From assembly GCF_055900595.2 (NCBI RefSeq), contig NZ_CM148325.1: DNA of 64,000 nucleotides; one strand, 5' to 3'. Of the stretch, positions 36,301-42,300 are shown one piece after another. The position numbers were made by a program. How positions within the stretch are numbered: the stretch's first letter is position 1; the number at the start of each line of letters is the position of its first letter.

Positions 36301-39300
36301 ACTGATTCTGATCCTCTGGCGCGTGGTTTATCGCTCAGTCACGCGTCCCCTTGCCGAACAAACGCAGGCGCTGCAACGACTGCTGGACGGTGATATCAAC
36401 TCCCCTTTCCCGGAAACCGCTGGCGTGCGGGAGCTGGACACCATCGGGCGGCTGATGGATGCGTTTCGCAGCAGTGTTCATGCACTGAATCGCCACCGCG
36501 AACAGCTGGCGGCGCAGGTCAAAGCGCGTACAGCTGAATTGCAGGAGCTGGTGATAGAACACCGACAGGCACGGGCGGAAGCAGAAAAAGCCAGCCAGGC
36601 AAAATCGGCGTTTCTGGCGGCGATGAGCCATGAGATCCGCACACCGCTGTACGGTATTCTCGGCACCGCGCAACTGCTGGCGGATAATCCCGCACTTAAT
36701 GCCCAGCGTGATGATTTGCGGGCAATTACTGACTCTGGTGAATCGTTGCTGACCATCCTTAACGACATTCTCGATTATTCGGCTATCGAAGCGGGTGGCA
36801 AGAATGTTTCGGTCAGCGATGAGCCCTTTGAACCGCGCCCGCTGCTGGAAAGTACCCTGCAATTAATGAGCGGACGGGTGAAAGGTCGTCCGATTCGCCT
36901 GGTAACTGAAATTGCCGACGATGTACCGACTGCGTTAATGGGCGATCCGCGGCGTATTCGTCAGGTTATAACCAACCTGTTGAGCAACGCCCTGCGTTTC
37001 ACCGACGAAGGGCACATTATCCTGCGTAGTCGCACTGATGGCGAACAATGGCTGGTCGAAGTGGAAGACAGCGGCTGCGGTATTGATCCCTCGAAACTGG
37101 CTGAAATCTTCCAGCCATTTGTTCAGGTTAGCGGCAAACGCGGCGGCACCGGGCTGGGGCTGACTATCAGTAGCCGTCTGGCCCAGGCGATGGGCGGCGA
37201 ACTCAGCGCCACCAGCACGCCGGAGGTTGGAAGCTGTTTTTGTTTACGCTTGCCGTTACGTATTGCCACGGCACCCGTGCCAAAAACAGTCAATCAGGCG
37301 GTGCATCTGGACGGTTTACGTTTGCTGTTAATTGAAGATAACCCGCTAACCCAGCGAATTACCGTTGAGATGCTGAACAACAGTGGTGCGCAGGTCGTTG
37401 CTGTTGGCAATGCCGCGCACGCGATAGAGACGTTGCAAAATAGCGAACCGTTTGCTGCCGCACTGGTGGATTTTGATCTGCCGGATATCGACGGTATTAC
37501 CCTTGCCCGACAACTGGTACAGCAATATCCGTCGCTGGTTTTGATTGGCTTTAGCGCCCATGTCATCGACGAAACGTTGCGCCAGCGTACCAGTTCGCTA
37601 TTTCACGGGATTATCCCTAAACCGGTGCCGCGTGAAGTACTCGGTCAGTTACTGGCGCACTATCTTCAACTGCAAGTCAATAACGATCAACCGCTGGATG
37701 TATCGCAACTCAATGAAGATGCTCAGTTGATGGGGACGGAGAAGATCCAGGAATGGCTGACATTATTTAAACAACATGCCCTGCCGCTTCTCGATGACAT
37801 CGACATTGCCCGCGCCAGTCAGGAAAGCGAGAAAATAAAGCGTGCCGCACATCAGCTAAAAAGCAGTTGCTCGAGTCTGGGAATGCGTAGCGCCAGCCAG
37901 CTATGCGCACAACTGGAGCAGCAGCCATTATCTGCCCCCCTTCCACACGAAGAAATTACACGCAGTGTTGCCGCTCTGGAAGCATGGTTGAATAAGAAAG
38001 ACCTGAACGCGATTTGAATCAATATCAGCCAGTTAAGAACAACTAGAATAGTGGCATTTGGCATGCAACTTAACGGACTGGCAAAATCATGGCAGAGAAA
38101 AGAAGAACCCGCTGGCAGCGGCGGCCAGGCACGACGGGCGGCAAATTACCGTGGAATGACTGGCGCAATGCCACGACCTGGCGTAAAGCGACGCAATTAT
38201 TACTGTTGGCAATTAATATTTATATTGCCATCACGTTCTGGTATTGGGTGCGCTATTACGAAACGGCAGGTAGTACGACATTTGTCGCCAGGCCAGGAGG
38301 CATCGAAGGCTGGCTACCGATTGCCGGTCTGATGAATCTGAAATATAGCCTTGCAACAGGCCAGTTACCGTCCGTCCACGCCGCCGCGATGCTGTTATTG
38401 GTCGCTTTTATCGTCATCAGTCTATTACTAAAAAAGGCCTTTTGTTCATGGTTATGCCCGGTTGGTACGCTTTCTGAATTCATCGGCGATCTCGGTAACA
38501 AACTGTTTGGTCGGCAATTTGTCCTTCCCCGCTGTCTGGATATTCCTCTGCGCGGCGTGAAGTATTTGCTGTTGAGTTTTTTTCTCTATATCGCGTTATT
38601 GATGCCCGCTCAGGCTATTCACTATTTTATGTTGTCGCCCTACAGCGTGGTGATGGACGTTAAAATGCTCGATTTCTTTCGTCATATGGGGACCGCGACA
38701 TTAATCAGCGTGACCGTTTTGCTGATTGTCAGTCTGTTTATTCGCCATGCCTGGTGTCGTTATCTTTGCCCATATGGCGCGCTGATGGGCGTGGTTTCGC
38801 TATTGTCGCCGTTTAAGATTCGTCGCAATGCCGAAAGTTGTATCGACTGTGGCAAATGCGCAAAAAATTGCCCATCGCGGATCCCGGTCGATAAATTAAT
38901 TCAGGTACGAACCGTGGAATGTACCGGTTGTATGACTTGCGTAGAGTCATGTCCGGTAGCCTCAACATTGACCTTTTCACTGCAAAAACCTGCGGCAAAT
39001 AAAAAAGCCTTTGCGTTGTCTGGCTGGTTAATGACGCTACTGGTTCTGGGGATTATGTTTGCGGTGATTGGTTACGCAATGTATGCGGGAGTATGGCAAA
39101 GCCCGGTGCCGGAGGAATTGTACCGACGCTTAATTCCGCAAGCGCCAATGATTGGTCACTAAATTAGCAACAAGCGGAACATCACCTCGCACGGGGTGAT
39201 GTTCACAAAATCACATTATTTTGATTTTGACATCATAGCTTTCAAGCCCGGTCATTTTTTCTCGTGCGGTGAAGCGAATTTCAGAGACTTCTTTCCCTGT

Positions 39301-42300
39301 ATTCTTGTTCAGCTCGGCGATTTTTTGCGCGATAAAGTCAGCGATTTCCGTTTCGGCTTGTTTTTTTAACTCTTCAATATTCACTGTTAACCTCTTCTGG
39401 TCTTAAAAGACAGCAACACGCCAGTAAGGTGTTGGTTCCCGGTCCCCTGGTCAGGTAAGAAATGTTATAAGCCATCTCCCCGAAAGATTCAATAATCAAC
39501 AGGTTATCGCTTACTATACATACAGCGTTGAAGAAAAATAAGGCAGATATAAAAAAGGCTCCACGAGGGAGCCTGATCTTATTTTGTGAAATCCAGCGGC
39601 GCATGGTCAGTGCGTATTTGCAGCGCGACGTTATCAAAGGTGATCATCGTCGATTTACAAAAAATACACTTTGCCCCTAAAGGATTTCGCTCCGTCACAT
39701 CGAATGCCGATGTGCGGTACTGTGAACCATGACAACATGGACAGCGGAAATGGAGATGTTGAGTAATAACGGCAACCTTAGAGCGTAACAACGTTCGCTG
39801 CCGCGGGACCACGTTGCCCCTGCTCAATAGAAAATTCAACTTTCTGATTTTCGTTCAGCGTGCGGAATTCATTGCTCTGGATGGCAGTGAAATGGACGAA
39901 AACGTCTTTGCTGCCATCATCAGGAGTGATAAAGCCAAAACCTTTATCTGCGTTAAACCATTTTACTAAACCAGTCATTTTATTAGACATATTTTACTTC
40001 CTTCATTTTGGGCCTTTCGGCAAACAGGGCTTTAATACAGAAACTACTTAGTGTTCAGGAGAGAGACTCAAAAGAAGGGGATAATGCCTGATAATGAGAA
40101 CTGCTTTAGTAAACTACTTTGTATGCTGTCTGTCTTTCAAACCGACGCAGCTATTAACGCATGATAATTGAGATTAAGCAAATTTTATTTTAGCCGTCCG
40201 GCGGTCTTAAATATCGCTGGCTTTATTTTATTAACCCCGTATAGTGCAGCGCAGTATTTTCAGTAAGGAATTTGTTTGTCCCGTAAAATGACAGGAATTG
40301 TCAAAACCTTTGATCGCAAAAGCGGCAAAGGATTCATTATCCCCTCCGACGGTCGTAAAGAAGTCCAGGTCCATATTTCCGCATTCACTCCCCGCGATGC
40401 AGAAGTGCTTATACCAGGATTACGCGTGGAATTTTGCCGCGTAAATGGCCTGCGTGGACCAACAGCGGCAAATGTTTATCTCTCTTAATATGACGCTGCT
40501 TGTTTAAAACTGACTGGTTTTATTGGAATAGATTAATAGTCAACACTACACATTATAACGCAAGTTACTTTTTCATCAAGAAACTAATACATTTGACCGA
40601 ATATCTCTGTACCTAATAGTTATAAACGCCACTTAACAGCCGGTTATAGTACCATTTGAAACTATATTACCAACAATAGTTAATAGCTTTCTCAACAATT
40701 TTCTTATCTTTAATTTATATTTTTCTAAGATTTATCTTATGCCCACGAGTCGTATTTCCAGAGGGAAATCGTTAACAATCCTATATTTCCCTCTGCGCGC
40801 CTTTCCTACCCGCAGTATATAGTGCAAGCGGTATGAGGAAAGGGAGATTTCACAAGGATGTTATACTCAAAGTAGATAATTCTGATCTCAAGCGTACGTA
40901 TTGTCCATGCGATGAATAAAGGAAAAGTTATGAAACACAAGTTTTCTGCAATCCTTATGGCCTTCATGTTGACGACGCCAGCTGCGTTTGCTGCACCAGA
41001 AGCAGCAAACGGGACCGAGGCAACGACGGGTACTACTGGCACCACAACGACCACTACTGGTGCCACTACGACTGCTGCTACCACCGGTGGCGTAGCTGCT
41101 GGCGCGGTCGGCACAGCGACTGTTGTCGGTGTGGCAACGGCTGTTGGTGTGGCGACGTTGGCAGTTGTTGCAGCAAATGACAGTGGCGATGGCGGTTCTC
41201 ATAACACCTCAACCACCACGTCCACTACGCGCTAATACCACTTTAACGCGTCGAAATTAAAGTTAAATGATACCCGGTTGCGATATTCGTACCGGGCTTT
41301 AGAGATTTGCATTTTTTTAATTAACCTTTCAAGGATTAAAGGTGCGCCCTCTTATTTTATCAATTTTCGCACTATTTCTTGCGGGATGTACGCACAGCCA
41401 GCAAAGTATGGTCGATACATTTCGCGCCAGCCTATTCGATAATCAGGATATCACCGTAGCGGATCAGCAGATCCAGGCGTTGCCTTATTCCACGATGTAT
41501 TTACGCCTTAATGAAGGGCAACGAATCTTTGTGGTACTGGGATATATAGAACAAGAACAAAGCAAATGGTTATCCCAGGATAACGCCATGCTGGTTACCC
41601 ACAATGGACGTCTTTTAAAAACCGTCAAACTTAATAATAATCTGCTGGAAGTGACAAATTCCGGGCAGGACCCTCTGCGTAACGCGCTGGCAATAAAAGA
41701 CGGCAGCCGCTGGACGCGCGATATTCTCTGGAGTGAAGACAATCATTTTCGCTCTGCGACCCTGAGTTCCACTTTTTCCTTTGCTGGATTAGAGACGCTG
41801 AATATTGCGGGTCGCGATGTGCTGTGTAATGTCTGGCAGGAAGAGGTGACTTCCACGCTGCCAGAAAAACAGTGGCAAAACACATTCTGGGTCGATTCGG
41901 CTACTGGCCAGGTTCGTCAAAGTCGGCAAATGTTAGGCGCAGGGGTTATTCCCGTAGAAATGACGTTTCTTAAACCCGCACCATGAATAAATTACTGTCG
42001 TATTTCATTGCCAGCGTACTTTACGTAATGACACCCCATGCCTTTGCGCAAGGAACGGTGACTATTTATCTGCCTGGCGAACAACAGCCCCTTTCCGTTG
42101 GCCCCGTGGAGAATGTTGTCCAGTTGGTGACACAACCGCAACTGCGCGATCGCCTCTGGTGGCCTGGAGTCTTGCTGACCGACTCCGCGGCGAAAGCTAA
42201 AGCGCTTAAAGACTACCAACATGTCATGGCACAGCTTGCTTCCTGGGAAGTAGAAGCTGACGACGATGTGACGGCAACGATTTAATCCGTGCGCCAGCAG

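Follow-up and report, generated by a model that had tools for sequence, protein, structure and literature searches.

Small reading frames downstream of cspG in Escherichia coli: the ATT start of ymcF, a probably separate gnsA, and the doubtful coding status of ymcE

Do the small, overlapping reading frames that follow the cold-shock gene cspG in Escherichia coli form a three-gene operon ending in a toxin-antitoxin pair, or is the locus organized in some other way? We examined this question in a stretch of 64,000 nucleotides (nt) from RefSeq assembly GCF_055900595.2 (contig NZ_CM148325.1), referred to here as the window, in which cspG, a frame with two CxxC pairs, ymcE, and gnsA follow one another on the minus strand (Table 1). 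We consider it quite probable that the locus comprises two expression units, cspG-ymcF and gnsA, rather than a three-gene overlapping operon, and that ymcE is a leftover open frame. The open reading frames (ORFs) and their overlaps were taken from an ORF listing of the minus strand and from the raw sequence; RefSeq, K-12 MG1655, Pfam, and NCBIfam concur in identifying them as the annotated cold-shock locus cspG-ymcF-ymcE-gnsA, and a 1-kb region had matches, annotated yccM, gnsA, ymcE, ymcF, and cspG, in 5,416 of 5,426 complete E. coli genomes. The original prediction, made from the sequence alone, had named gnsA, ymcE, and cspG correctly and was right about the 57 codons of gnsA, its GTG start, and its 11-nt overlap with the 3' end of ymcE (39374 to 39384), which recurs in RefSeq and K-12 coordinates. 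The frame that it offered as a possible new zinc-ribbon gene is a genuine gene and is already annotated as ymcF (K-12 b4723, "cold shock small protein YmcF"); as a whole, the prediction is an accurate reading of a locus already on record and adds nothing to the current E. coli annotation.

That the CxxC frame encodes a protein is evident from its match to the Pfam family PF23641, "YmcF-like" (164.9 bits against a cut-off of 27), and from a comparison of eight Escherichia sequences (the window and seven others, among them six GTDB representatives), in which its variable sites were distributed 5/4/25 over the first, second, and third codon positions. Drawn mechanically from the TTG at 39839, the frame has 86 codons and overlaps both the start of ymcE and, in another frame, the 3' end of cspG. 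The overlap with ymcE is real (26 nt, 39579 to 39604, as in RefSeq and K-12 coordinates); that with cspG exists only in the mechanical, TTG-started version. The frame is indeed open from this TTG, and some database homologues are annotated as proteins of 70 to 72 amino acids (aa) with upstream starts, but the notion that the full 86-codon frame is the gene is scarcely tenable. The Pfam match begins at residue 25 (residues 25 to 86 align with profile positions 1 to 62), the 24 N-terminal codons are not conserved across species, and the curated K-12 and RefSeq annotations place the start at an ATT, giving a gene of 189 nt that begins 10 nt past the cspG stop. Comparison of 80 loci from different species, each encoding a YmcF relative and taken from 193 detected loci, leads to the same codon: at the position aligned to YmcF residue 1, 42 loci have ATT, 3 have ATC, and 31 have ATG. 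In many of the ATT loci, an in-frame stop occurs a mere 3 to 7 codons upstream with no ATG, GTG, or TTG in between, and in over 15 species such a stop, again with no canonical start intervening, is 3 to 9 codons away. Because these close upstream stops leave no room for a canonical start, the ATT at 39767 is the start of ymcF; it follows that ymcF does not overlap cspG and that the 24-codon extension lies outside the gene. The YmcF protein sequences of the window and K-12 are identical, the window carrying only a few silent or intergenic substitutions; the ATT start, the 10-nt distance from cspG, and the 26-nt overlap with ymcE are shared, and there are no functional differences between the two versions of the gene.

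The use of this unusual codon is associated with the gene that precedes it. Of the 40 loci with a csp gene directly upstream, 39 start ymcF with ATT or ATC, and 38 of those have the csp stop 9 to 10 nt before it; the stop, TAA or TGA, is followed by GG, which creates a Shine-Dalgarno (SD) sequence, UAAGG or UGAGG, overlapping the stop, and then, after an 8-nt spacer of variable sequence and constant length, comes the ATT or ATC. By comparative sequence analysis, therefore, the AUU/AUC start is conserved at a fixed distance from both the SD and the upstream csp stop. In the other 40 loci, where no csp adjoins ymcF, the dominant start is ATG preceded by AGGAG (30 loci), and a further 5 have an ATG within 1 to 3 codons of the aligned position. 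The weak AUU and an SD that overlaps the cspG stop suggest that synthesis of YmcF is coupled to translation of CspG: YmcF would be translated from the AUU by way of the UAAGG, and proximity-based coupling of this sort would set its output at a low, fixed ratio to that of CspG, which is translated very heavily in the cold. Some observations weigh against so simple an account. Four free-standing ymcF loci retain ATT, the correspondence between start codon and csp linkage reflects only about 5 or 6 independent changes on a crude UPGMA (unweighted pair group method with arithmetic mean) tree of the 80 loci, and the csp-ymcF junction yielded no conserved RNA structure, RNAalifold predicting 0 pairs over 20 junctions. 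With so few independent changes, the association between csp linkage and start codon is suggestive but not proven.

Two other mechanisms were considered for the junction and rejected. For an RNA hairpin that occludes the ymcF start, the classic means of coupling, no support came from the RNAalifold result or from a single-sequence fold, which had a z-score of -0.28. Recoding or read-through to yield a Csp-YmcF fusion was rejected as a general mechanism because the frame relation between the two genes differs between lineages with a 9-nt and those with a 10-nt gap; a genomic fusion occurs only in Citrobacter sedlakii (locus L022, approximately 2258 to 2690), the sole csp-linked locus with an ATG, where a short deletion at the 3' end of csp brings it into phase with ymcF and creates a potential Csp-YmcF fusion ORF. 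The nearest precedent for the start codon is infC, which encodes initiation factor 3 (IF3), is one of very few E. coli genes that start with AUU, and is autoregulated through the discrimination of IF3 against this codon. Like infC, ymcF has a conserved AUU/AUC start although ATG is one mutation away; unlike infC, its AUU is tied to a stop codon 9 to 10 nt upstream, and free-standing members of the family use AUG. Among the free-standing genes, those of two Pseudescherichia-like loci (L041 and L069, approximately 2470 to 2510) have an ATT that is overlapped in another frame by an 8-codon mini-ORF, ATGAAAAAAGGATACTATTATTACTAA, which might take the place of csp as upstream cistron. In loci L065 to L083 (approximately 2470 to 2500; Enterobacter, Leclercia, and Lelliottia), a common direct repeat, TTTACGTTTTTACGTTTACAGGAG, lies just before the ATG.

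The messenger that carries cspG and ymcF appears to be delimited at both ends. Upstream and across the coding region of cspG, itself a conserved gene (variable sites 5/3/24), the window matches the entire Rfam model RF01766, the cspA thermoregulator (model positions 1 to 428; 160.9 bits against a gathering score of 78; E = 1.2e-43), and we envisage a bicistronic cspG-ymcF messenger with a cspA-type cold-responsive leader. This messenger would end at an intrinsic terminator 4 nt past the ymcF stop. The hairpin concerned folds with -14.1 kcal/mol (z-score, -3.74), and none of 200 shuffled sequences folded as well; a hairpin followed by a T-run occurs after ymcF in 40 of the 80 loci, nearly all of the csp-linked ones included, and the stem sequences differ between genera. 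In Salmonella, the corresponding segment is the small RNA (sRNA) candidate STnc220: the Rfam family RF02077 scores 102 bits at loci L013 (2647 to 2726) and L024 (2647 to 2725), where it occupies the last approximately 43 nt of the ymcF homologue together with the terminator. STnc220 is the 3'-terminal part of the ymcF messenger. Its positional equivalent in the window scores 31.4 bits against a gathering score of 60 and so falls short of it; STnc220-like RNA may be derived from the 3' end of the csp-ymcF messenger.

A second unit would consist of gnsA with its own promoter-like element and ribosome-binding site. The gene is not in doubt: GnsA belongs to the GnsA/GnsB family (PF08178, 122.3 bits against a cut-off of 27), matches PDB entries 4XO1 and 4XO2, "Protein GnsA," over its full length (residues 1 to 57; E = 1e-31), and has variable sites distributed 7/1/19. 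The promoter-like element, which a simple scan misses since its -10 hexamer ends in C, has counterparts of the same geometry (TTGAAT/TTGAGT/TTGAAA/TTGCGA, 17 nt, TATAAC/TAAACA/TATAGA/TACACG) that align before Citrobacter gns and before gnsB of the cryptic prophage Qin, neither of which is accompanied by ymcE; this alignment points to the element as the putative promoter of gnsA. In nearly all of 18 gns upstream sequences AGAAGAGG is retained, and a GTG or ATG stands at the same aligned position. A structured gnsA leader was also considered, but inspection of the alignment gave no consistent covarying helix, and the idea was dropped. With a terminator after ymcF and a promoter-like block and ribosome-binding site before gns, the conserved unit is likely to be csp-ymcF-terminator, with gns apart from it.

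The same arrangement is found in mobile elements. Qin carries the module cspI-ynfQ-(ynfR)-ynfN-gnsB, and active lambdoid phages (Tritos, HannyBb, mEp460, and 2H10) carry related ones; all share with the chromosomal locus the order csp, YmcF-family gene, gns, the 10-nt gap after csp, the ATT start, and the promoter-like block before gns, and in Qin a terminator can be read after the small gene ynfQ. The modules sit after the lysis cassette, and their recurrence in Qin and lambdoid phages makes the chromosomal locus a paralogue of a phage accessory cassette. They differ from it in that YnfQ is approximately 66% identical to YmcF and in having ynfN (and ynfR) where the chromosome has only the approximately 190 nt annotated as ymcE. 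In K-12, ynfR (locus L003, approximately 8189 to 8257, minus strand) begins 2 nt past the ynfQ stop and spans the terminator hairpin; YnfR is described in the small-protein paper of VanOrsdel (2018), in which "YnfQ" denotes a different ORF, now called ynfT. The warning in the original prediction that small overlapping genes are easily missed is borne out here: the ymcF homologue has no annotated feature in six of nine phage records, and in phage HannyBb (PP925841, locus L085), the ATT-started ymcF-like gene at 2501 to 2689 was passed over and an antisense ORF at 2545 to 2745 was called.

What, then, is ymcE? The ORF opens inside ymcF, spans the terminator and the promoter-like block, and reaches into gnsA, and its pattern of variation lacks a coding signature. 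Variable sites in the eight Escherichia sequences were distributed 14/11/13, with 9 gapped columns; of the seven sequences other than the window, four have lost the start codon (ATG to AGG in three and to ATA in one) and four have a frameshift or stop, so that start or frame is lost in six of the seven, and in five of the six GTDB representatives, with ymcF and gnsA intact throughout. Disruption is seen in E. albertii, E. whittamii, and cryptic clades. Stretches in which all three codon positions are conserved alternate with indel-prone ones, the most conserved being the stem of the terminator and the gnsA promoter plus leader, a pattern that fits regulatory DNA better than it fits coding sequence. 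YmcE protein clusters number only 28, all of the Escherichia/Shigella type, with many fused or truncated variants, and tblastn found ymcE in none of 74 non-Escherichia loci, save for weak partial matches at two Citrobacter loci, both in the gns leader. Although annotated, ymcE is probably not a conserved protein-coding gene; the frame may simply be what happens to stay open from the 3' end of ymcF through the terminator and the promoter and leader of gnsA to the 11th nt of that gene.

Two findings tell against this assessment of ymcE. The ORF is intact and annotated in 5,414 of 5,426 complete E. coli genomes, which is a weak test since these genomes are 97 to 99% identical, and in Qin a cold-induced SPA (sequential peptide affinity)-tagged protein was detected from the 21-aa ynfR ORF, which overlies the homologous terminator, so translation can take place in ORFs that follow ymcF-type genes. 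The sequence homologous to the terminator hairpin spanned by ynfR, namely the window hairpin with its U-run, encodes residues RLPRGAFF of YmcE. From these facts one might argue that ymcE is a genuine, young, Escherichia-specific gene for a small hydrophobic protein without antitoxin function, expressed by cold read-through of cspG-ymcF transcripts; YmcE has a hydrophobic stretch, GAFFISALFFFNAVCIV, and its RNA is reported to be strongly regulated in transcriptomes. We regard this as unlikely, though not a negligible possibility: there is no third-position bias, no SD is evident before the ATG at 39604, and the losses in sister lineages and the location of the conserved blocks are not what such a protein would lead one to expect. 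The string "ymcE" in a proteomics paper proved to be a peptide sequence and not the gene. One YmcE cluster bears the database name "Sfa protein." Suppression of fabA6, at first ascribed to sfa (ymcE), was reportedly reassigned to gnsA.

The status of ymcE bears directly on the toxin-antitoxin proposal, which the original prediction raised with some hesitation. The label certainly exists: Pfam names the families "GnsAB_toxin" and "YmcE_antitoxin," the RefSeq product of gnsA is "GnsA/GnsB family addiction module toxin," ymcE-gnsA is listed among E. coli systems in passages of papers that cite a review and the GnsA crystal-structure paper, and another paper calls YmcE an antitoxin. A type II module, with GnsA as the toxin and YmcE as its labile antitoxin, would also suit the layout, in which ymcE lies upstream of gnsA and overlaps it by 11 nt; as in relBE, which neighbors the paralogue in Qin, the genes are small and adjacent, lie on the same strand, and overlap briefly. 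The comparative evidence is against it, and we judge the proposal highly improbable. Outside Escherichia (Citrobacter, Qin gnsB, and lambdoid phages), gns homologues are never found with ymcE, occurring instead with ynfN or with no upstream partner; no conserved co-occurrence of toxin and antitoxin across lineages was found, YmcE being confined to Escherichia/Shigella-type clusters; and the site counts, gaps, and losses described above give no sign of an antitoxin under purifying selection as a protein, gnsA remaining intact in the sister lineages in which ymcE is disrupted. In addition, the supposed antitoxin gene contains a terminator-like hairpin and a promoter-like element, and no DNA-binding domain was matched in YmcE with Pfam. 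Published evidence on the supposed toxin, though indirect, is also at odds with the label: gnsA alone acts as a multicopy suppressor, its ASKA plasmid rescuing fadR/relA and lapC mutants, not arresting their growth, and increasing the level of unsaturated fatty acids; gnsA overexpression strains and the gnsA deletion mutant are viable, overexpression increases the unsaturated fatty-acid content at low temperature, and no toxicity of gnsA alone has been reported. Most likely, GnsA and YmcE are not a toxin-antitoxin pair, and since YmcE is probably not a conserved protein, the "toxin" label of GnsA should be used with caution.

We turn to the product of ymcF. A full-text search of the literature returned gene lists only, and no paper on ymcF function or its start codon was found. 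The family is narrow, with 137 clusters in a set of 5.8 billion proteins and 42 representative clusters among 1.84 billion, and all named clusters come from Enterobacteriaceae or their phages; the conservation of the CxxC frame across Enterobacteriaceae, which the original prediction had put forward as a check, was thus found. In 47 family sequences, the invariant residues are C9, P10, C12, Q16, R18, S20, F36, C37, K38, and M41, while at least 90% keep C34, which amounts to a Cys4 pattern of two knuckles, CPxC and CxxC, 21 residues apart and flanked by SQYR and GAKCIFCK motifs. AlphaFold2 (AF2) with a deeper alignment gave a core of short strands at residues 11 to 40 with a pLDDT (predicted local distance difference test) of 87 to 91; a model from a shallow alignment, with a pLDDT of 53, was not interpreted. 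In its two CxxC knuckles, of which the first is CPxCxG, its short beta strands, and its weak fold and motif matches, YmcF resembles the zinc-ribbon or rubredoxin-knuckle mini-domains of TFIIB, TFIIE-alpha, and TFIIS and the CPxCHG module of UvrA; it differs from them in lacking a significant sequence or fold match and in its restriction to Enterobacteriaceae and their phages. The leading Foldseek matches in the PDB, the zinc ribbons of TFIIE, TFIIB, and TFIIS, were nonsignificant (E of 2 or more), which counts against too confident an assignment, and the NCBIfam zinc-binding family ECs_2282 was rejected at 16 bits against a cut-off of 37. On this modeling and motif evidence, YmcF is plausibly a zinc-ribbon-like, metal-binding protein, and our best guess at its role would be that of a metal-stabilized nucleic-acid- or ribosome-binding mini-protein that works alongside Csp.

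The metal might instead be iron, YmcF being a rubredoxin- or Rieske-like iron or iron-sulfur redox protein and not a structural zinc ribbon. The segment HFRCPCCHGSQY recalls Rieske box II (KFKCPCHGSQY), weak PDB profile matches were obtained (E of 0.09 to 0.3), the paralogue YnfQ is modeled in a 2026 review as an Fe2+-bound protein of rubredoxin topology, and close relatives of YmcF keep C11 and H13 almost without exception. In distant members, however, both of these residues vary (CPKC, CPAC, CPRCQG, and CPSCGG), leaving only four cysteines invariant or nearly so; the Rieske matches are not significant, and the best of the weak fold matches are to zinc ribbons. Membership of the Rieske-type [2Fe-2S] proteins was rejected, the similarity amounting to a local box II-like match, CPCCHGSQY, with no box I (CxH), and neither this likeness nor that to the UvrA zinc modules reaches the family-defining residues. 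An iron protein is in our estimation improbable, and we retain the zinc-ribbon-like reading.

Table 1. Features of the cspG-gnsA region, in coordinates of the window
Feature	Position	Strand	Description and basis
Strong hairpin between convergent yccM and gnsA	39177..39204	.	10-12 bp (base pairs); fold energies on both strands
gnsA coding sequence (CDS)	39211..39384	-	57 aa, GTG start; Pfam PF08178, E 7.6e-36
ymcE-containing ORF	39374..39637	-	87 codons
ymcE (sfa) ORF	39374..39604	-	76 codons, ATG at 39604; Pfam PF15939, NCBIfam PRK09891
gnsA ribosome-binding site AAGAGG-N6 and GTG start	39382..39396	-	gns upstream alignment
Promoter-like element of gnsA	39464..39492	-	-35 TTGAAT 39492-39487, 17-nt spacer, -10 TATAAC 39469-39464; inside ymcE ORF
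Positional homologue of Salmonella sRNA family STnc220 (ymcF 3' end and terminator)	39541..39621	-	RF02077, 31.4 bits
Terminator-like hairpin AGGCUCC-CUCGU-GGAGCCU and U-run	39551..39574	-	Terminator scan; 4 nt past ymcF stop, inside ymcE ORF
ymcF CDS	39579..39767	-	62 aa, ATT start, Cys4 CPxC...CxxC; RefSeq, K-12 b4723, Pfam PF23641
CxxC ORF as drawn mechanically	39579..39839	-	86 aa from TTG; CPCC and CIFC motifs
cspG-ymcF junction TAAGGTTGCCGTTATT	39765..39780	-	cspG stop TAA 39780-39778, SD-like AAGG overlapping stop, 8-nt spacer, ATT 39767-39765
Extension from TTG 39839 to ATT, over cspG 3' end in other frame	39768..39839	-	Outside ymcF gene
cspG CDS	39778..39990	-	70 aa, cold-shock domain protein; Pfam CSD, E 1.7e-33; RefSeq and K-12 annotation
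cspG leader and coding region, cspA thermoregulator family	39724..40146	-	Rfam RF01766

At the far side of gnsA, the hairpin in the yccM-gnsA interval folds with -20.2 kcal/mol (z-score, -7.1) on the plus strand and -15.6 kcal/mol (z-score, -3.9) on the minus strand; it was missed by the terminator scan because it has no canonical U-run and is a possible shared, bidirectional 3'-end element. At the other end of the locus, cspH (40276 to 40488, plus strand) diverges from cspG in the window; beyond cspH, K-12 has IS1D, which is absent from the closest RefSeq match, where a gfcA-sized ORF is found.

A more ambitious version of the two-unit organization deserves mention, although we hold it only tentatively and think it more apt to be wrong than right. 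At the csp-ymcF junction there may be a conserved device for termination and reinitiation, in which AUU or AUC is kept only together with an SD-embedded csp stop 9 to 10 nt upstream; the terminator may be a Csp-sensitive attenuator that links gnsA to the unit, CspA-family proteins having been reported as antiterminators; and ymcE may be an annotation artifact. If so, only ribosomes that have just completed a Csp protein would make YmcF, the ratio being low, fixed, and possibly responsive to IF3, and cold read-through of the terminator would reach gnsA, tying membrane-lipid adaptation to the cold-shock response. The artifact, if it is one, would have spread into Pfam, RefSeq, and toxin-antitoxin catalogues; the designation of YmcE as an antitoxin has already been propagated through Pfam, RefSeq product names, toxin-antitoxin surveys, modeling papers, and fold-switch predictions.

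In summary, three points from this locus are worth keeping: the probable coupling of an AUU start to csp, the probable noncoding nature of ymcE, and the identity of STnc220 as the 3' end of the ymcF messenger. The homologues of ymcF in phages illustrate how ATT-started small genes come to be missed or miscalled, and the csp-linked AUU start could provide a natural system in which to study reinitiation at near-cognate codons during cold shock.

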